From an uncultured virus (IMG/VR IMGVR_UViG_2061766007_000920) (Duplodnaviria; Heunggongvirae; Uroviricota; Caudoviricetes), in the IMG/VR virus record IMGVR_UViG_2061766007_000920: 59,769 nucleotides of DNA. One strand, given 5' to 3'. Both the position numbers and the translations under genes were made by a program. Shown one piece after another: positions 3,518-47,214 of this stretch. Numbering within the stretch: the stretch's first letter is position 1; the number at the start of each line of letters is the position of its first letter. The notes beneath the pieces were generated by a model. It saw only the letters and a program-made list of their open reading frames with translations, was not told where the DNA came from and ran no database searches.

Positions 3518-3730
3518 TTACTTTTTTCCTATAAATTCATCTACAATTATTAAAGGTTTGGATTTTTCCGCTTTATGTCTAGTTTTCACTTTCGTCTTTT
3601 TTGATTTATTTAGTTTTGCCATTTCACACATGTTCTGACTGACACTCGCGCATGGCATAACGTTGAGACCACATACAGGTATGCCACACAGCTTTACCAT
3701 ATACGGGCATCCGTCTACACTTTCTGCCAT
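3518..3730 (-). CDS. small Cys-rich hypothetical protein
   Basis: 70-aa ORF, RBS GGAGG. Confidence 0.6.
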   Translation of the reverse strand: MAESVDGCPYMVKLCGIPVCGLNVMPCASVSQNMCEMAKLNKSKKTKVKTRHKAEKSKPLIIVDEFIGKK

Positions 3731-4144
3731 AACAATACCTCCCTAATACCATACTATATCTTTACACAAAGCGTCTCTACTTCCCCTTCAATACATTCAG
3801 TAAATCTTCAAACGGAACTCTGTAAATCTTTTTCTTACCGCATTTACAGCACACCTTAATCATATAAAAAATATTATTTTTATCTATATAAACTTTCGTA
3901 TCCTCATCTCTGAATCGACAACCACCACTCAACAAACATCTTATTTTGTCCATTAATGCCTCCTGCAAAGTTCGCTTTAATATGTCTCTACTCCATTTAT
4001 AGTTACTCCGTACTCTGACGGCTTCACATACCCAAGCTGTGAAAATCTAAGGCGTGTTATATTTCATTTCTATACATGAGCATTCATGTAACACTCACGC
4101 TAATTGGGCGTTTGCTGTTTACTCTGCCCACGAGAACAGCTAAT

Positions 4145-4243
4145 CAGTGGGTAAGGATTTGCACCTTACATGTAGGGGCGCGTTCAAAGCTCGTTGCCCT
4201 ACCCTAGCATTTATCAGCGTGTCTACCTATTCCACCACCACTG
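4145..4243 (-). ncRNA. tRNA-Leu-like RNA without canonical anticodon arm (copy 1)
   Basis: CAGTGG-TG-GTGGAATAGGTAGACAC...long hairpin...AT-GTAAGG TGCAAAT CCTTAC-CCACTG; 6-bp acceptor, 6-bp T-stem. Confidence 0.75.
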
Positions 4244-4338
4244 CAACCTCTGCGCATAGCATCGGTGTTACTGTTTATACCTACTCATGGTATATCAGCT
4301 AATAAATCTTGGTTCTCAAAATAGCACTTGATAAATGA

Positions 4339-4893
4339 TTATGGAATATATTCACCATCATAATCTGTTAATACGGGATAACCCTGTTGACATACTTTAT
4401 GAAATTCATCAAGACCTTTATCTCTTATTATTTCAAGAAAATAGACAATTAACTTTTCTGTCTCTGGATGAAAATGTCTGCCTTTTCTTACTTTGTTGAA
4501 ATAATTAAGCGGTTCATCTTGTGTCCATTTTTCATTGTTATATACTTTACCTGCACCAATCCAATCACAGACCATTTCTATAACATATTTTGATGGCATT
4601 TTATTTGCAATAATACTGCCATTATCATCAAAATCTGTCCACCATTCCCAATGATGTTTATTTACACCTTTGTGATGCAACCATGCCATAGAATAACCAC
4701 AATCCTCTTTTTCTGCCTCAATAGGGCTTCTGTTTCCTTGAAAATGTTTTGCAGATGCAAAAAATTCTATAGCACTAAACTTTGATAAATCATGCATAAT
4801 ACCCTGCCATATTATGCCGCAAGATTTGCATTCTTGATATACAACCATTTTATGTTTACATATTGTTTTTAAATGTTTCCATTTTGCTCCTAT
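4339..4893 (-). CDS. DUF5662-like HD-type protein, probable ATA start
   Basis: HDLSK, RSP, AWLHHKGVNKHHWEWW and EMVCDWIGAGKVY motifs; frame open 15 codons upstream of the ATG to an ATA placed 8 nt after GGAGG. Confidence 0.7.
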   Translation of the reverse strand: MGAKWKHLKTICKHKMVVYQECKSCGIIWQGIMHDLSKFSAIEFFASAKHFQGNRSPIEAEKEDCGYSMAWLHHKGVNKHHWEWWTDFDDNGSIIANKMPSKYVIEMVCDWIGAGKVYNNEKWTQDEPLNYFNKVRKGRHFHPETEKLIVYFLEIIRDKGLDEFHKVCQQGYPVLTDYDGEYIP

Positions 4894-4925
4894 AATTACT
4901 CCCTCCTTTAAATAAGTTCGTAATA

Positions 4926-5040
4926 TGCGGGATAAGGACTTTCACCTTATCATGTACTCAGAGAACCAATAGCATCACGGAATCGAACCGTGTCTGAGTT
5001 CCTCGTATGCCCTTACTAGCGTCTATCTTCCGCCACCGCA
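4926..5040 (-). ncRNA. tRNA-like RNA (copy 2) with nested second T-arm
   Basis: TGCGG-TG-GCGGAAGATAGACGC...CACGG TTCGATT CCGTG...CAT-GATAAGG TGAAAGT CCTTATC-CCGCA. Confidence 0.75.
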
Positions 5041-5086
5041 ATACTATGAAAAGAACGATTTTATCATTCGCCTTATTAGGCTATTC

Positions 5087-5210
5087 TGCGGGAGGGATTT
5101 GAACCCTCATGTATTTTCTCTAGGACGTGTGGACTTAAAAATACTAAAGCCAATAGGACTTTCACCTATCCTTTGCTCCTACAAGTTTGCGTCTATCTTC
5201 CGCCACCGCA
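5087..5210 (-). ncRNA. tRNA-like RNA (copy 3) with nested T-loop hairpin
   Basis: TGCGG-TG-GCGGAAGATAGACGC...ATAGG TGAAAGT CCTAT...AT-GAGGG TTCAAAT CCCTC-CCGCA. Confidence 0.75.
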
Positions 5211-5215
5211 TAATT

Positions 5216-5301
5216 GCAGGTAAGGATTTACACCTTACATGATGCATTGTACCGCCATAGCGTTACCACATCTGATTAGCGTCTACTTATTCCGCCACTG
5301 C
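5216..5301 (-). ncRNA. tRNA-like RNA (copy 4), anticodon arm absent
   Basis: GCAG-TG-GCGGAATAAGTAGACGC-TAATCA-[GATG...CATC hairpin]-AT-GTAAGG TGTAAAT CCTTAC-CTGC. Confidence 0.7.
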
Positions 5302-5405
5302 TTAATTCATAATTTTGCTTCGTTTACTAAAGCAAGACCTCTCTAAAGCCGACTTTCGCTTTACAATTGTCGGGGTCTCTGTCTACACATGGTAGAAGAG
5401 TGATG

Positions 5406-5526
5406 CTGTGGATAAGGATTTGAACCCTACATGATATGATTTCCTTCTAAAACAACAGTTTCTTTTTACCACAAAGACTTGTATCATATCTTCTGTCAGA
5501 AGCGTCTACCCATTCCGCCACCACAG
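5406..5526 (-). ncRNA. tRNA-like RNA (copy 5) with large-loop variable arm
   Basis: CTGTGG-TG-GCGGAATGGGTAGACGC-TTCTGACAGAA-GATATGAT[42 nt]ATCATATC-AT-GTAGGG TTCAAAT CCTTAT-CCACAG. Confidence 0.75.
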
Positions 5527-5530
5527 AAAA

Positions 5531-30176: not shown

Positions 30177-30543
30177 CTATCCTTTGGATAGCCCATACTC
30201 TTTGATATAAGCCTTTTGCAACTTTCTTGACTATATAATCTGGTTTTGTATCTGTTGAACCATCCTCTTTAAAGACAGGCGCTACATCTATAAAAAGCTT
30301 TGAATACTCATTAATCGGCAAATCCTGCACTGTTGAAATCATCTTGTCGTACACAAGGTCTCTTCCAAAAGGCGTGTCGTATATTTCTGAGGTATTCGCG
30401 CTTATCATCGCTTTTGCCTTGATAGGATTTGAATAGCTAGGTACAGTATCTCCCGTCAAATACCCGTCATCATCGACTTCCTCTACTTCACCGATATATG
30501 TTTGATAATAAAATTCTCTTTGATTACCGCTATAGTCAAACAT
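30148..30543 (-). CDS. head closure / head-tail adaptor
   Basis: synteny; DDDGYLTGD...Y..P pattern. Confidence 0.65.
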   Translation of the reverse strand: MFDYSGNQREFYYQTYIGEVEEVDDDGYLTGDTVPSYSNPIKAKAMISANTSEIYDTPFGRDLVYDKMISTVQDLPINEYSKLFIDVAPVFKEDGSTDTKPDYIVKKVAKGLYQRVWAIQRIDGYGQGNQS

Positions 30544-30555
30544 TCAATCACCTTC

Positions 30556-30885
30556 TTACCAAACATACGTTTTTACTGGTATCTGACTTAAACTGCTACC
30601 TATGCTTTCATCGCCACCAGACTGCCAAACTCTCCTAACGCCAAGCTCTGAAAATTCTTTCAAGCCATCGCGTTTAGCTACGTCTAAAGTTGTTTTAGCA
30701 AGGTCATAAATTTCATACTCATATCTGCTTATGAAATTCTCACGCTCCTCTGCGGTAGGTATATCACCCTCACCCCAAAAGTAATGATTTAATGCCATGC
30801 TTATTGCTCTATCAAGTAGCACTTCAAGCTGTGCGTCCGTAAAAGAAGTTTCTCCGATTATAGCTTTAAAAGTTTCTATACTCAT
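30556..30885 (-). CDS. head-tail connector (gp6-like)
   Basis: directly after capsid gene; helical; SELGVRR motif. Confidence 0.65.
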   Translation of the reverse strand: MSIETFKAIIGETSFTDAQLEVLLDRAISMALNHYFWGEGDIPTAEERENFISRYEYEIYDLAKTTLDVAKRDGLKEFSELGVRRVWQSGGDESIGSSLSQIPVKTYVW

Positions 30886-32668: not shown

Positions 32669-33361
32669 TCATTTATATTCTGTAGAACATCTACAGTTGT
32701 CAAGCTCACTTTCACTTGCTCCGAGTGAATCATCTCCCGCAAACATCATTTGAGAAGTACCAACATTAAAAGGTTCATCTATATCTACCGTAACGCCTTC
32801 CATAATTTCATGGGTAGGTCTTACTCTTTCATCTAATGATGTATGCCATATCTTTTTCTTGTTTTTCGCTTTTGCCTCGAAATATTCTTCATTGTTATAC
32901 TTCCAATTGGCTTCATTTAATGCGATTAAATTTGCTCTCGATTGACCGAGCCATGTTTCTATTTTGTCTGAGTTTGCGATTATAGCACTTACCGCAACTC
33001 CTTTTATTACTGAATCTACAAAATCATCAGCATCATTACGTTTGTTTTTAGCAGGAATAGCTGTTATATTGTTCCAAGTTACTTCTTGTATCTTTGAAGC
33101 TTTTCTAAAAGCCCTGTCTATAACCACCTTTGAATATGCGTCATTGGCGGTTATAGACGTTTTTGTTATCTCAAGATACTTGTCAACCATTTTATCTATA
33201 TAAGCCTCTTGATTACTCTTAAAACTGCCATTTAAGATATCTGCAAATTCCTCGTCAAACAAGTCCATAAACCAGTTTTCAAGTTCTTCCGCAAGAAGTA
33301 TTCTTCTTGCTTTTTGAGGCTCTGTTATTAACATTGATGCATAAAACAGTTCTGGCTTCAT
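32669..33361 (-). CDS. minor head protein (Mu F / SPP1 gp7-like)
   Basis: KIWHTSLDERVRPTH...NCRC. Confidence 0.85.
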   Translation of the reverse strand: MKPELFYASMLITEPQKARRILLAEELENWFMDLFDEEFADILNGSFKSNQEAYIDKMVDKYLEITKTSITANDAYSKVVIDRAFRKASKIQEVTWNNITAIPAKNKRNDADDFVDSVIKGVAVSAIIANSDKIETWLGQSRANLIALNEANWKYNNEEYFEAKAKNKKKIWHTSLDERVRPTHEIMEGVTVDIDEPFNVGTSQMMFAGDDSLGASESELDNCRCSTEYK

Positions 33362-34908
33362 ACATTTTCTACCTGTGCTACAGATGAGGGTTGAATCGAC
33401 TCAGCGACTTGTGATTTCTTTTCGTTATTTTCTCCACCCGCGCCATCTTCGCTCTTACTTGTAGCATCAACACCTTCGTTTGCAATCTTTTTCTGAGATT
33501 GTTCTATCACTTCTCTTGAATCGAGCCATGCCTGTTCTGAATCTGAGAACAAACCTACTGTCTGGAATGCCCAAAGACCATCTACTCCCGAATTGAGAAG
33601 CGTTGCCAGTGCGTTTGCCTTTGATATAAGGTCATAGTTCTTATTTCTTGGCATTGATATTTCTATATCAGATACATCTATTTTTGAGATGTTGTTGAAA
33701 TGTCTCTTATCAAGTTCGATGCTTTTAGCAACAAGTCTCAAGATTTCATTCTCTGGCTCTGTGAAATTCTGTTCCACTGCCTTTGCTGAAAGCTCTAGGC
33801 TCTGCCATCCATTTGAAAGTTGCATTGCTCCTGTGGTAGAACCACCGCTTGCTTCTTGCCAAGAAGGTGTTGCAGTTATTTCTTCAACTTGTCTGCTTAA
33901 GAAATCTGCGAACGATTGAATCTGTCCTTGGTCTAATACTTGAGAAAGATATGCTATTTTAGCTTCTTTTCCATCGCCATTCGACTTTGTGACAATCACT
34001 CCGTCTCCATCAATCAGCTTTTTCTTTTTTTCTTCATCAATCATGCAGTTGTGAAGCCAAAGCAATGACTGAACATGTTGTGCAACATCGTTTATTCTAT
34101 CTGAATTAAGAGTATTTATTCCATCAAGAATAGGTATTGCTTTTTCAAAAACACCCATCCTATCAGTGTTTTCAAACTCTACGATAGGAATTATGCCGTA
34201 CACATTAACTGTTTCATCAACAATAGTGTTTGCATTACCTACCACATAGTTCTTTATTGTGAAGCACTTATTAGGAGTGTATAACGTTGCAGTCATACTT
34301 CCATCTGCGTGTGTATTATAAGTTCCTCTTAATAGAGTTTCTCTAAACGCATCGTTTCTTACTACACTAAATGTCGTGAGAGGGTTAAGTGTAGTGATTT
34401 TAAATGGAGAATATTGATAGGATTTATCGTTTCTCCAAACCATTTGATAGCCAACACCGCATGTCATAAAATCTCTTGCAAGTTGTAGGTCTTTTTTTGC
34501 CTTGCTCTGCTCAGCCATCATTTTATTTATCATGGCTATGTTATCGCTATCCTCATTATATGAGGTCTGAGGTTTTCTCGAATCATCCTCGACTTTTCCT
34601 CTTTGAGCATAAGTAATAGGATTTCCAAAGCAATAACCTACATGAGTGTCAACAATCCTTGATGCTATATTAATTACCAACTTTTCATTTATATCTGGAC
34701 GAATATCTTTTTTTCTTTCTATAATAGGCTGTTTACCTCTTGTATAGCTAAAAAGAAATTCCTCTCGCATAGCATTTTTTTGATGTTCTGAATAGGCAGT
34801 TTCAAAGATTTCTAGTACATTATCTTTGGTGACTTCTTCAACATCTGTATATATAATTATTCTTCCATACGTGGAATCAGCGTTTACAATAACAGGCGTT
34901 GGATTCAT
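33358..34908 (-). CDS. portal protein, SPP1 gp6-like
   Basis: 516 aa; IVDTHVGYCFGNPITY, IPIVEFEN, ILDGINTLNSDRIND. Confidence 0.9.
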   Translation of the reverse strand: MNPTPVIVNADSTYGRIIIYTDVEEVTKDNVLEIFETAYSEHQKNAMREEFLFSYTRGKQPIIERKKDIRPDINEKLVINIASRIVDTHVGYCFGNPITYAQRGKVEDDSRKPQTSYNEDSDNIAMINKMMAEQSKAKKDLQLARDFMTCGVGYQMVWRNDKSYQYSPFKITTLNPLTTFSVVRNDAFRETLLRGTYNTHADGSMTATLYTPNKCFTIKNYVVGNANTIVDETVNVYGIIPIVEFENTDRMGVFEKAIPILDGINTLNSDRINDVAQHVQSLLWLHNCMIDEEKKKKLIDGDGVIVTKSNGDGKEAKIAYLSQVLDQGQIQSFADFLSRQVEEITATPSWQEASGGSTTGAMQLSNGWQSLELSAKAVEQNFTEPENEILRLVAKSIELDKRHFNNISKIDVSDIEISMPRNKNYDLISKANALATLLNSGVDGLWAFQTVGLFSDSEQAWLDSREVIEQSQKKIANEGVDATSKSEDGAGGENNEKKSQVAESIQPSSVAQVENV

Positions 34909-35543: not shown

Positions 35544-37208
35544 TCAGAATCCTAAACTAGCTCTGCTAATTATCTCTACTTGAGAACTCTCAAAAGAATT
35601 TATATAAAGAGCTAACATAGCAAGAGCATCAACACCATCATCATGTTTATTCTTTCCCATTTGTACATAAGAAAGAACACCTTGCATGAATTTCTTGTAC
35701 ATATCCGTCCATTCGGAGGGGTCTTTAAATACTACATGCTTCTTTACCCAGTCCGAATTAACAATAATCTTTGTCTCTTTGTTTGTCGTGGTATACTTCT
35801 TTGTTATAGAGCATCTTCCGCCTTTTTCGTTTACCAGACGTTGAACCTCGTTTCCTGTCCTAGAACCCTCTTTATTTGATTCAAACTGGCACATCTGAAC
35901 CTTATTCCTAACCAGACAGTTCGCATTTAGTTCATCTAACGTATATGGAGAGCCATTATCATACACAACATCTTCAAGATAGAACTTCTTTCCGTAGCCA
36001 TAAACAACTAACAAACAGTTAAAGTCAGTTCCTACGTCCTTTGTATCACATACGCCTAATATAGAGTCAGCTTCTTTTGTCTTGCCTTCATCGTCACAAG
36101 GAAGCCCGCCAAGATAGAACTGTAATTCCTCTTTCTTATAAAGTAATCCTTCTCTTTCAATCGGGTCTGACATATATAAGCACTTAAAGGTGATTTCATC
36201 CATGACATTTTCCATTTCTTTGAAATAGAAAGTATCAAACCCCTTATCGTATTTATAATCAAACTGACTTTCCCCGTTTTCATCATAGCAACCATAAGCC
36301 AAGAATCGCGCTCTGTCATTACCTTCATTTTCCCTTATAAAGTGACCTATGGGGTCATGCACAGACCATCTGGTAGCTATTGATATTTCCTTACAGCCTT
36401 TTATTCGTCTTGATTTTGCATCGTTCACGTATTTCTGATAAAGATTTTCAAGTCTTTGTACGTTCATGGCTTCTTCTGTTCCCGAAACCAAGTCATCACT
36501 CAAGATAATGCCACTTGCTCTCGTTACACCCGTCATTGAAGCATCAATTGAACGACACGTAAGAGATTTAAAGGGCTTATAGCTATTAAGGTTTATATAT
36601 TTTTCTTTATCAGACCTTGATTCAAGTTTTACATTAGGGAATATCTCTTCCCATGCATATTCTCCGCTAAACATTATGTCACACATCGAACGATGAAACA
36701 TATCTGCGATTGTTCCTGTATAGGAGACATAAAGATTGAAACTATCTGGGAATAAACCCATATAGAAAGATAAAAAGAACTCGGCAAGAGTTGTTTTACC
36801 TGCCCCCGGAACTACTGAAACCGTCAATATATCAAGTTTATCGTCCAATATGTCTTGAAAGCCCTGTACAATGCCCAGTTTATTCTTTAATATTTCTCTT
36901 CTGGGCAAATAAAATTGAGCATCTGGTTCTCTTTTATGCTCAAGAAATATCATGTAAGAGTCAAAATCCTTAAAATACCTTGCAAGATATTTCAAGGATA
37001 GAAGGTATACTTCATAAAAGGCGGGGTTCTTTACGGTCTGAACCAATGCGATGTTCCTGCCTTTTTCGCATACCCTACGTCCTTCTTCTTCGTCATTATC
37101 TGCAAGGTAGATATTTTGCCCCATTTCTATAAAATCTTTTAGACGCTTCGGATTCGTCTTTAAATCTGGGGATAATTCTAATCGTTTGATAATCGTTTTA
37201 TTATTCAT
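35544..37208 (-). CDS. terL: terminase large subunit
   Basis: VPGAGKTT Walker A, ILSDDL Walker B, TRWSVHDP, CDTKDVGTDF, HDDGVDA nuclease motif. Confidence 0.92.
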   Translation of the reverse strand: MNNKTIIKRLELSPDLKTNPKRLKDFIEMGQNIYLADNDEEEGRRVCEKGRNIALVQTVKNPAFYEVYLLSLKYLARYFKDFDSYMIFLEHKREPDAQFYLPRREILKNKLGIVQGFQDILDDKLDILTVSVVPGAGKTTLAEFFLSFYMGLFPDSFNLYVSYTGTIADMFHRSMCDIMFSGEYAWEEIFPNVKLESRSDKEKYINLNSYKPFKSLTCRSIDASMTGVTRASGIILSDDLVSGTEEAMNVQRLENLYQKYVNDAKSRRIKGCKEISIATRWSVHDPIGHFIRENEGNDRARFLAYGCYDENGESQFDYKYDKGFDTFYFKEMENVMDEITFKCLYMSDPIEREGLLYKKEELQFYLGGLPCDDEGKTKEADSILGVCDTKDVGTDFNCLLVVYGYGKKFYLEDVVYDNGSPYTLDELNANCLVRNKVQMCQFESNKEGSRTGNEVQRLVNEKGGRCSITKKYTTTNKETKIIVNSDWVKKHVVFKDPSEWTDMYKKFMQGVLSYVQMGKNKHDDGVDALAMLALYINSFESSQVEIISRASLGF

Positions 37209-39270: not shown

Positions 39271-39610
39271 TCTCTAACTCCTGTTCGCTAAGTTTTATTC
39301 GCACATCTTCGTAAGATGCAACTATTTTAGGTATAAGCCATGCAATCCACTCTACAAGGTTCTCATCGTCATCATAATGAGTACCTGTTTCTCTACTGTA
39401 AGCATGAACCAACTCGTGTAACAGAACTTCCTTTACCGCTACAAAGCGTTCCTCGTCTGTTACGTCGCCTTCAAGAATAATTTCTGGGTTTCTAACAATG
39501 ATTTCGTGCAGATAACACTTACATAACCCCGCTTTATCTAACAACAGCGGATTACGTAAGTCGTCAAATTTGACTTGGTACTCCGTACCTAAGATGTTTG
39601 TAGATACCAT
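39254..39610 (-). CDS. HExxH Zn-metallopeptidase-like protein
   Basis: [10 protein letters not shown]...DENLVEW; start moved to MVSTNILG. Confidence 0.65.
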
Positions 39611-39806
39611 ATGCCCCCTTTCCCTCCTTATAGGAGGTGACGCGCATAGCCCCTTACAATAAGTTACCATGCGCGTCCATACATACAACGTTATAAACAA
39701 AAGACCACTGATAGTGGTGAATTAGTTACTAGGCTTTGACACCTAGTAACCGTCACGAAAGGAAAGACAATCACGCCGCATCGGTTTCCCCAAACCTTTA
39801 CGGCGA

Positions 39807-39852
39807 AGATGCGGGTAGGAATCGAACCTACTTAAAGCCCAAGCCCGCATCT
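39807..39852 (-). ncRNA. minimal tRNA-like RNA (acceptor + T-arm, 13-nt linker)
   Basis: AGATGCGG-GCTTGGGCTTTAA-GTAGG TTCGATT CCTAC-CCGCATCT. Confidence 0.65.
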
Positions 39853-39910
39853 GCCTCAACAGAAAGGATAAAAAATATGAAAAAACCCACACCCATCCAA
39901 AAGACAGGAA

Positions 39911-39950
39911 GCCGTAGGCGAGAGTTGAACTCGCATAACCCATCTACAGC
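39911..39950 (-). ncRNA. 40-nt minimal tRNA-like RNA (7/5 acceptor/T stack, 9-nt linker)
   Basis: GCTGTAG-ATGGGTTAT-GCGAG TTCAACT CTCGC-CTACGGC. Confidence 0.65.
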
Positions 39951-40118
39951 ATCACATTTCAATAAACCTTTACTGCGCCAGACTTGCAGTGTTTTAAACT
40001 TATCAATGTGTCGTATAAAGTATGCGCCGTCGAAAAATCTTGATTGCTAGATTTTAAGTATACTTTACACATAAGTTTTTTGGCGTTGATGCAATCATTT
40101 AATACTACCAAGGAATAA

Positions 40119-40176
40119 TGCGACGGTAGGAGTCGAACCTACGTCATGTTTCGTTCTGCCGTTGAACTACGTCGCA
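40119..40176 (-). ncRNA. tRNA with the anticodon arm deleted
   Basis: TGCGACG-TA-GTTC AACGGCA GAAC-GAAACATGAC-GTAGG TTCGACT CCTAC-CGTCGCA; all three remaining stems are perfect. Confidence 0.8.
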
Positions 40177-40248
40177 CCTAATGCTCAGATATTTTGAGGG
40201 GGAATATCTGAAAAGGTAGAACCAAATGGCAAACTGGTTTCCCAGTGA

Positions 40249-40319
40249 CGGCGCTGATAGGAGTTGAACCTACGTCTAGGCAGTCAAAGTGCCATGCACT
40301 ACCGTTGTGCTACAGCGCT
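40249..40319 (-). tRNA. tRNA-Gln(TTG)
   Basis: cloverleaf AGCGCTG/GCAC-GTGC/TGGCA CT TTG AC TGCCT/GTAGG TTCAACT CCTAT/CAGCGCC; mismatches at 1:72 and 27:43; CCA not encoded. Confidence 0.8.
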
Positions 40320-40334
40320 ATCTCATCTATTAGT

Positions 40335-40363
40335 AGTATACCTCATATTTGATGATAAGTAAA
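40335..40363 (-). promoter_or_regulatory. promoter for the tRNA/tRNA-like cluster
   Basis: TTTACT-17 bp-TATACT, 15 nt upstream of tRNA-Gln. Confidence 0.6.
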
Positions 40364-46844: not shown

Positions 46845-46982
46845 ATATGCGGTGGCGGAATAGAAGTCTTCAAAAGAGAAGATGATACATGCATTATGCA
46901 TAGTGTAGACGCTTATACTCGTAAGAAGCTTGGTTCGAGAATATCATGGCTTCATGTAAGGTGCAAATCCTTACCCGCATAT
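46845..46982 (+). ncRNA. tRNA-like RNA (copy 6) with ~41-nt insert in the D-loop
   Basis: ATATGCGG-TG-GCGGAATAG[insert]GTAGACGC...CAT-GTAAGG TGCAAAT CCTTAC-CCGCATAT. Confidence 0.75.
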
Positions 46983-47074
46983 GGTGCTGTGGTGGCGGAA
47001 AGAGGTAGACGCAACGCTGACGAGCGTGACAGATGATTCATGTAAGGTTCAAATCCTTACCCACAGCATCACCA
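46983..47074 (+). ncRNA. tRNA-like RNA (copy 7), tetraloop instead of anticodon loop, ends in ACCA
   Basis: GGTGCTGTGG-TG-GCGGAAAGAGGTAGACGC-A-ACGCT GACG AGCGT...CAT-GTAAGG TTCAAAT CCTTAC-CCACAGCATC-ACCA. Confidence 0.8.
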
Positions 47075-47106
47075 GAAATGGTGAACATAGTAAATCTTCT
47101 TTCAAA

Positions 47107-47214
47107 AGACCGTGATGATGGAAAGGGTAGACAAAATTAAGCGGATTGCTTAATGGATAAGTGCAAAAGCGGAAAAAGCTTATCATGCAAGGTTCAAATC
47201 CTTGCTCACGGTTT
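47107..47214 (+). ncRNA. tRNA-like RNA (copy 8)
   Basis: AGACCGTGA-TG-ATGGAAAGGGTAGACAA-ATTAAGC GGATT GCTTAAT-GATAAG...CTTATC-AT-GCAAGG TTCAAAT CCTTGC-TCACGGTTT; compensatory change in the T-stem. Confidence 0.7.

Follow-up and report, generated by a model that had tools for sequence, protein, structure and literature searches.

Three reduced tRNA genes made of the tRNA top half lie next to the tRNA-Gln gene of a tailed rumen phage

Three reduced tRNA genes, in which the helices of the tRNA top half are kept and the anticodon is missing, lie in a row on the minus strand of an uncultured tailed phage genome (IMG/VR record IMGVR_UViG_2061766007_000920). The whole stretch of DNA that was analysed, 59,769 nt long, is called the window here. 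It belongs to a rumen phage of ~37% G+C, and it encodes a large terminase (35544-37208), a portal protein and an open reading frame (ORF) of 3245 codons. Bovine, goat and sheep gut sequencing runs carry DNA nearly identical to it. The three genes, referred to as elements 2, 3 and 4, follow a gene for tRNA-Gln(UUG) in a noncoding stretch of ~640 nt upstream of the SprT-like, dUTPase and small-terminase genes. The order on the minus strand is tRNA-Gln, two hairpins, element 2, a spacer, element 3, a terminator-like hairpin, element 4, further hairpins and a terminator. Elements 2-4 are genuine, structurally maintained top halves, in which the acceptor stem is stacked on the T arm, plus a D arm in element 2. 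We tentatively propose, as a possible rather than a probable role, that these top halves were reduced from the lineage's own tRNA-like genes and are kept as handles at which RNase P and RNase Z cut a noncoding leader.

Element 2 (40176-40119, or 40118-40176 with the discriminator U, the T at 40118) is a 58-nt tRNA body without an anticodon arm. It consists of a 7-bp acceptor stem, a 4-bp D stem with GG in the D loop, a 10-nt stretch (GAAACATGAC) and a 5-bp T stem capped by the loop TTCGACT. The D arm reads GTTC-AACGGCA-GAAC, and U8, A14, G18, G19 and A21 are recognisable as well. The 10-nt stretch ends in UGAC, which resembles the AGAC at the end of the variable loop of tRNA-Gln. Element 2 scores 45.2 bits on the Rfam tRNA model, of which the gathering score is 29, and in the alignment the anticodon arm (17 model positions) is replaced by 5 nt. 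Its minimum-energy fold is exactly the proposed tRNA-like shape.

Elements 3 and 4 are minihelices that have no D stem, only a GGG in the linker. In element 3 (39950-39911; mapped as a feature at 39910-39950, minus strand) a 7-bp acceptor stem with one U.G pair is joined through a 9-nt linker, ATGGGTTAT, to a 5-bp T arm with the loop TTCAACT, and the discriminator is U. The proposed shape is again the minimum-energy fold, and Rfam gives no tRNA match to this element. Element 4 (39852-39807; mapped at 39806-39852, minus strand) has an 8-bp acceptor stem, for which 7 bp can also be drawn, a 13-nt linker and a 5-bp T arm with the loop TTCGATT, followed by U. In Rfam it matches tRNA-Sec weakly (22.6 bits, E 0.87), short of the gathering score, which is 47. 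All three elements pass a strict descriptor, in which a 7-bp acceptor stem is closed on a 5-bp T stem with the T-loop consensus. An earlier note on this DNA had described a 58-nt tRNA lacking the anticodon arm and two acceptor/T-arm minihelices, and this architecture is borne out by Rfam, by the descriptor and, for elements 2 and 3, by the minimum-energy folds. The three RNAs and tRNA-Gln also sit on the minus strand where that note had placed them, as located by ARAGORN, Rfam and the descriptor.

The anticodon stem-loop is absent from all three: element 2 has the 5 nt just mentioned in its place, and no more than 9 and 13 nt separate the two stems of elements 3 and 4, respectively. ARAGORN calls none of them as a tRNA. 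In its intron mode, ARAGORN proposed a "tRNA-Ala with intron" across elements 3 and 4, a spurious call that was rejected. Judged from their sequence, elements 2-4 cannot decode; the claim that the reduced RNAs have no anticodon therefore stands, on the Rfam alignment, the descriptor and the ARAGORN result together. The sole decoding tRNA that ARAGORN finds, both in the window and in the whole of the nearest related record, is tRNA-Gln(UUG), at 40247-40320 on the minus strand (Rfam tRNA, 61.6 bits at 40319-40249). This nearest record, G001, is a 91,323-bp genome with direct terminal repeats and is 98% identical across the region. The Rfam alignment of tRNA-Gln has an A1.C72 mismatch. As read from the sequence, CCA is not encoded in any of the four genes, and each has a T after the discriminator. 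At E values up to 1, Rfam gives no RNA family match in the whole window beyond the two tRNA matches. Genes of this kind escape tRNA finders or are wrongly labelled as tRNA pseudogenes.

Three such helices in one window are far beyond chance. For the chance test the strict descriptor called for a T stem of 5 bp with a TTCRANN loop and for an acceptor stem paired at 7 of 7 positions. Hits with a core of at most 30 nt were counted, on both strands, in 200 sequences simulated from the whole window with a first-order Markov model. In the window itself the descriptor finds exactly the three reduced elements as short-core matches. The simulations gave a mean of 0.15 short-core matches and a maximum of 2; at least one match occurred in 28 of the 200, and three matches in none. 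The T-arm motif GGTTCRAYTCC, with up to one mismatch, is likewise enriched, with 9 sites against 2.3 expected, a number reached by 0 of 100 shuffles. Eight of these nine sites lie in helix-closed structures and the ninth in a coding frame, so that the window holds no orphan T arms.

The helices are also conserved among natural variants of the region. The window was compared over 40330-39700 (631 nt) with G001, with a genome-bin contig (L169, 97% identical) and with a contig from an RNA library (X16), and variant sites were pooled over these three sequences, which are few and closely related. There are 27 variable sites in the 631 nt. The 124 paired positions of the four elements hold 1 of them against 5.3 expected (P 0.02), and the D, T and anticodon loops with the other unpaired tRNA positions (59 nt) hold none against 2.5 expected. 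The three linkers (32 nt) hold 6 against 1.4 expected (P 0.002) and are the fastest-changing part, although the GGG runs within them are unchanged. tRNA-Gln has no variable site in the three variants. The sole variant site of element 2 (40148) falls inside the 10-nt stretch, and that of element 3 (39935) inside the linker.

The lone change in paired positions, in the X16 variant of element 4, is compensated. An acceptor G is deleted and the last linker base is changed from A to G, as a result of which the acceptor stem shrinks from 8 to 7 bp, the T stem grows from 5 to 6 bp, and the 13-bp stack is kept. In this variant the tRNA-like fold is the minimum-energy structure. Pairing is also kept in the neighbouring hairpins. 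The change at 40193 in L169, in the hairpin 40211-40185, turns a U-A pair into U.G, and stem changes in G001 and L169 leave the terminator-like hairpin at 39908-39880 paired. The spacer carries nine variable sites, two of which are 1-nt insertions that break a frame of 50 codons. The pattern suggests a structural RNA, of which the stems are preserved. The earlier note had argued for selection on the tRNA top half and had drawn attention to GG in the linkers. The first part holds in so far as stems and T loops are kept (one compensated change against 5.3 expected) and linkers vary (6 against 1.4); a role for the linker GG finds no support.

A protein-coding reading of the region was considered and rejected: its five overlapping ORFs have no PHROG match, and among the variants a 2-nt deletion and two 1-nt insertions fall within these ORFs. 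Contigs assembled from RNA libraries of three studies cover 40202-40330 (tRNA-Gln and 45 nt), 39939-40104, 39617-39961 and 39600-39886. As assembled contigs they attest presence only, not transcription, strand, ends or level. The contig over the spacer (39939-40104) comes from a size-fractionated RNA library. Element 2 lies outside this coverage, and nothing is drawn from the uncovered parts. Two adapter-flanked contig ends, at 39886 and 40104, were considered as RNA ends and not counted, the strand being unassignable. All four runs compared consisted of assembled contigs, and the DNA run among them, X4, gave no coverage.

The relatives of the phage point to where the reduced genes may have come from. 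No phage in GenBank matches the region by blastn. With the large terminase as query, 8 viral and 78 metagenome loci were obtained. Three relatives (L007, L008 and L009; large terminase 80, 79 and 68% identical) keep the same gene order. ARAGORN finds tRNA-Gln in L007 and L008 and none in L009. In all three, which are the relatives whose available sequence covers it, the slot upstream of the packaging genes holds one to four tRNA-shaped genes of ~76-130 nt, which score 37-46 bits on the Rfam tRNA model; for most of them ARAGORN names no anticodon. One slot gene of L007 has a stub, GGTT-TGAA-AACC, at the place of the anticodon arm, and its counterpart in L008 has a 12-bp hairpin there. Full-length normal tRNAs with nearly identical stems, as recent deletions would have left in close relatives, occur at these positions in none of L007, L008 and L009, and the earlier view that elements 2-4 are not recent deletions from normal tRNAs is upheld in these three relatives. 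At the DNA level, only tRNA-Gln aligns between the window and phages with a 68-82%-identical large terminase. When the spacer was aligned by MAFFT with the segments that follow the tRNA-like genes of L007 and L008, the likeness was only patchy, and it is not relied on.

Minimal forms are rare outside this lineage. In 88 loci (793 kb) and the window there are 17 matches with a core below 35 nt; 12 are the window and G001 copies, and each of the remaining five is nested within a larger gene, falls in a coding region or is AT-rich. At least four unrelated IMG/VR phages have a stub capped by a tri- or tetraloop at the place of the anticodon arm, and in three of these phages ordinary tRNA genes lie next to it. 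In the unrelated IMG/VR phages L092 (1643-1700), L091 (1551-1487) and L095 (1550-1487), short tRNA-like genes, of which the cores measure 27-34 nt, occur beside or among ordinary tRNA genes; their anticodon arm is absent or a stub of 2-4 bp. A sister contig, L200 (G002:C21:27077-27141, minus strand), carries an extra tRNA-like gene of 65 nt that is absent from the window, with a 3-bp stub, AGC-GAAA-GCT, as anticodon arm and a score of 31.2 bits on the Rfam tRNA model.

The acceptor stems of the reduced elements resemble those of longer tRNA-like genes. The acceptor stem and D arm of element 2 are close to those of two long-insert genes (L029:4842 and L016:11238) of phages with a 50%-identical terminase, and 20 of the first 24 bases are the same as in L029, counted by eye. 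In these genes the anticodon loop is replaced by ~35 nt with a conserved hairpin and a CAGCAA motif. The acceptor stem of element 4 agrees at 11 of 14 positions with a leucine-type scaffold RNA of the window (5212-5085), and that of element 3 agrees at 11 of 14 positions, by eye, with GCTGTGG/CCACAGC scaffolds at 46985-47070. We estimate each of these likenesses at ~0.03 by chance; they are suggestive and not proof. Taken together, they suggest that elements 2-4 may be reductions of existing phage tRNA-like genes. The earlier note had regarded them as an independent set of tRNA mimics, and this description is not supported, since the likeness of element 2 to the long-insert family and of elements 3 and 4 to leucine-type scaffolds points to reduction.

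Long-insert genes of this kind form runs of tRNA-shaped genes, each ~100-130 nt, in gut phages with a 50%-identical terminase (L016:11238-11783, L019:11140-11678, L024:5656-6179 and L029:4842-5629). They score 40-48 bits on the Rfam tRNA model, and their anticodon region is a conserved hairpin, ..ATCATG..TGAT.., followed by CAGCAA. The anticodons that ARAGORN assigns to them in intron mode are mutually inconsistent and were rejected. In another relative, L013, the large-terminase match is split by ~900 nt into two pieces (2194-2607 and 3520-4908) that overlap in the query (residues 1-138 and 97-554); the split may reflect an inserted element or a duplication.

In the proposed scheme, internal deletion from the lineage's non-decoding tRNA-like genes would have given rise to elements 2-4. 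Descent from such genes is reasoned from the relatives, where they occupy the same slot, which is flanked by tRNA-Gln and the packaging genes. Each element would be cut on its 5' side by RNase P. Because no CCA is encoded, RNase Z would be expected to cut after the discriminator, and CCA would then be added. A T after the discriminator is favoured by RNase Z. The handles would thereby split the ~640-nt leader into tRNA-Gln and discrete small RNAs and would define or protect their ends, a role akin to punctuation. The elements keep the part of the tRNA that is recognised by RNase P, RNase Z and the CCA enzyme, and it is therefore that we read them as handles. Hairpins made of acceptor stem, T stem and T loop are efficient RNase P substrates, according to a review (PMC11143913).

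Several observations weigh against this scheme. The minimum-energy fold of element 4 in the window is a competing GU-rich fold (-19.0 kcal/mol, against -15.7 kcal/mol for the tRNA-like one). A terminator-like hairpin already follows element 3, where a processing signal is not obviously needed. The spacer that the handles would release (39951-40117, minus strand; 167 nt) is the most variable part of the region and is unstructured, with a fold z-score of +0.57. The RNA-library contigs give neither ends nor strand and could include DNA. Only one narrow lineage (the window, G001, L169 and one RNA-library contig), at least 97% alike in the region, is known to have the minimal forms, and the conservation test thus rests on few, related sequences. 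Finally, tRNA-like cassettes turn over between genomes that are ~97% alike, and this suggests an arms-race locus more than housekeeping punctuation.

This last point leads to a different explanation, which we consider rather unlikely: the top halves would be active products, processed and CCA-tailed, that act as decoys and sponge up whatever binds the acceptor/T-arm end. The proposed targets are defence toxins by which the 3' end of tRNA is modified or cut, EF-Tu, the CCA enzyme, or a synthetase able to charge minihelices. Enzymes and toxins that act on the tRNA end accept minihelices. Decoys would account for selection on exactly the helices and the T loop, for the four different acceptor stems that are kept, and for the at least ten tRNA-like genes that the phage holds against one decoding tRNA. 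Accessory anti-defence loci, moreover, often differ between close genomes as these cassettes do. Against this stands that the targets are candidates only, and that a literature search gave no precedent for phage minihelix decoys. Pfam scans took in 64 of the window's 92 ORFs, which lie outside the structural block 11993-37208, and, for the parts of G001 beyond the window, 53 of 59 ORFs. Among these ORFs the locus has no linked gene for defence or counter-defence, and no member of the RNA ligase, CCA enzyme, RNase or Ro60 families was found. A wider form of the idea holds that the top halves are free-standing products, matured by RNase P, RNase Z and the CCA enzyme, that serve as decoys for proteins reading the acceptor/T-arm end, and that this function is common to anticodon-less phage RNAs, RNA1-3 of phage T5 included; we judge it improbable.

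The elements could instead be relics, that is, tRNA or tRNA-like genes that lost their middles by deletion and are drifting to loss, the stems being intact as the deletions are recent. The restriction of minimal forms almost entirely to one lineage, to which 12 of the 17 short-core matches belong, would fit such a history, and so would the longer forms in relatives and the fast change of linkers and spacer. Pseudogenes are common in phage tRNA clusters, and one T5 record annotates two. Yet the stems are flawless in three of three reduced elements, from which whole arms have been removed cleanly, and the paired positions are depleted of changes, the lone one being compensated. The window also holds no orphan T arms, its motif sites being closed by a helix or lying in a coding frame. 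On balance we find relics unlikely.

Remnants of integration sites, in which copies of a host tRNA 3' end (attP/attB type) happened to be closed by a complement upstream, are highly improbable, for although G001 encodes a tyrosine recombinase of 198 residues, this gene lies more than 20 kb away, each element has a complete 5' strand of its own, three in a row are far beyond chance, and no acceptor stem is shared with the tRNAs of a genome bin associated with the phage. This bin is a metagenome-assembled genome of a ruminal member of the Bacilli and contains an 88.9-kb contig with a 99%-identical terminase, which is probably the phage itself, binned with the bacterium. The comparison covered 32 distinct bin tRNAs from 30 of 45 loci, none of which shares an acceptor stem with elements 2-4, and the bin may not be the true host. 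At the 3' end the best matches reach 16-19 of 25 bases, all of them within the generic T arm; in the 5' strand no more than 5 of 7 bases agree.

The remaining features of the noncoding region bear on how it would be transcribed. A promoter-like site, TTTACT-17-TATACT, lies upstream of tRNA-Gln (40335-40363, minus strand) and is identical in G001. The earlier note had placed the whole series behind this one promoter. The site matches the consensus at 9 of 12 positions, and the region holds seven sites at that level against 6.5 expected from shuffles, which is chance level. The terminator-like hairpin with a T-run directly 3' of element 3 (39880-39908, minus strand, from a consensus scan) implies that element 4 need not be transcribed together with the others, and along with the chance-level promoter match it leaves one promoter and one transcript unproven.

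Two hairpins fill the interval between tRNA-Gln and element 2 (40185-40246, minus strand), as read from the sequence and from a fold of the 636-nt region. The first, ACTGG-GAAA-CCAGT, spans 40246-40233 and the second, of 9 bp, spans 40211-40185. An intrinsic-terminator-like hairpin with a T-run (39695-39718, minus strand, consensus scan) closes the noncoding region. Between it and element 4 lies a hairpin with a conserved apex, TAGG-TGTCAAAG-CCTA (39725-39751, minus strand), which has no Rfam family match. A motif scan of IMG/VR with its apex, TAGGTGTCA[A/C]AGCCTA, gave 60 exact matches. In 33 of the 60 the apex sits on a further complementary stem of 5-8 bp with varying sequence, and a T-run often comes after it. 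No downstream gene is common to the IMG/VR matches, the downstream genes being diverse. From its sequence distribution this looks like a widespread, uncatalogued phage hairpin.

The window also carries leucine-tRNA-shaped RNAs in two clusters, with four copies at 4922-5528 (minus strand) and three at 46848-47214 (plus strand). The copies consist of an acceptor stem, a class-II D arm (GGCGGAA...TAGACGC), an insert of 40-90 nt that replaces the anticodon arm, CATG and a T arm, and none of them matches the Rfam tRNA model at E up to 1. The content and order of copies in the cluster at 4922-5528 differ between the window and G001, and in one copy an acceptor pair C-G in one of the two genomes is T-A in the other, changed on both strands. 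These scaffold RNAs share the top-half architecture and similar acceptor stems with elements 2-4; they keep a class-II D arm and the 40-90-nt insert, which elements 2-4 are without. Elsewhere in G001, the 198-residue tyrosine recombinase is encoded beside an FtsK/SpoIIIE-type ATPase (L167:13711-15620), and an IS200-type transposase gene and an IS605 OrfB (TnpB-like) gene lie near contig ends (L164:603-1097; L168:10473-11309).

Acceptor/T-arm minihelices have served for decades as laboratory models for RNase P, for the CCA enzyme, for some synthetases and for ideas on the origin of tRNA. To our knowledge, no natural stand-alone gene of such a shape has been described, and a literature search found none in phages. 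What the present locus offers is three genes of minihelix type in a row, with different stems and conserved helices, beside the only decoding tRNA. It is a compact test system for processing, charging and anti-defence, with four substrates of graded completeness in a region of ~640 nt. It also suggests that selection acts on the top half as the shared part of a large, uncatalogued family of phage tRNA-like RNAs that do not decode, the function of which has been open since the stable RNAs of phage T5 were annotated.

Among known systems, the eukaryotic mascRNA is cut by RNase P and RNase Z, and CCA is added to it. Released from the 3' end of MALAT1, it resembles the elements in being a non-decoding tRNA-like RNA of ~58 nt cut from a longer transcript. 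Unlike the elements, it keeps a reduced anticodon-like arm and is present in a single copy at the 3' end of its RNA. YrlA, a bacterial and phage Y RNA (RF02553), carries a tRNA-like module of acceptor, T and D arms on a non-decoding RNA, according to Chen et al. 2014 (PMC4201824). It has a long Ro-binding stem, which elements 2-4 are without; up to an E value of 1 the window gives no RF02553 match, and no TROVE/Ro60 (Rsr) domain was found in the scanned ORFs of the window and G001. The tRNAs with "enigmatic introns" of Lak megaphages, which are gut phages, resemble the long-insert genes of the relatives in their unexplained extra sequence in the anticodon region, and they are read as interrupted decoding tRNAs (Devoto et al. 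2019, PMC6784885), whereas elements 2-4 have lost the anticodon region altogether.

The model substrates of RNase P made by McClain, Guerrier-Takada and Altman come closer to elements 3 and 4. According to the review (PMC11143913), these synthetic RNAs of acceptor stem, T stem and T loop form a coaxial helix of 12-13 bp with a T loop, and they are cleaved efficiently at the canonical site. They are laboratory constructs without a linker bulge, whereas in elements 3 and 4, which are natural genes, a bulge of 9-13 nt sits at the junction of acceptor and T stems.

The closest described objects are RNA1, RNA2 and RNA3 of phage T5, which are entered in GenBank AY543070 as misc_RNA (30501-30644, 32959-33083 and 33877-33949) with the descriptions "tRNA-like stable RNA with unknown functions" and "putative tRNA-like RNA". 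Like elements 2-4, they are non-decoding, tRNA-shaped genes with an acceptor stem and a T arm, and as they lie among phage tRNA genes, so elements 2-4 lie directly downstream of tRNA-Gln. T5 infects E. coli and the window phage comes from the rumen; the two sets are compared by architecture, not by sequence. The T5 RNAs are 73-144 nt long and have a D arm and a large middle domain, whereas in elements 3 and 4 a linker of 9-13 nt is all that lies between the acceptor stem and the T arm.

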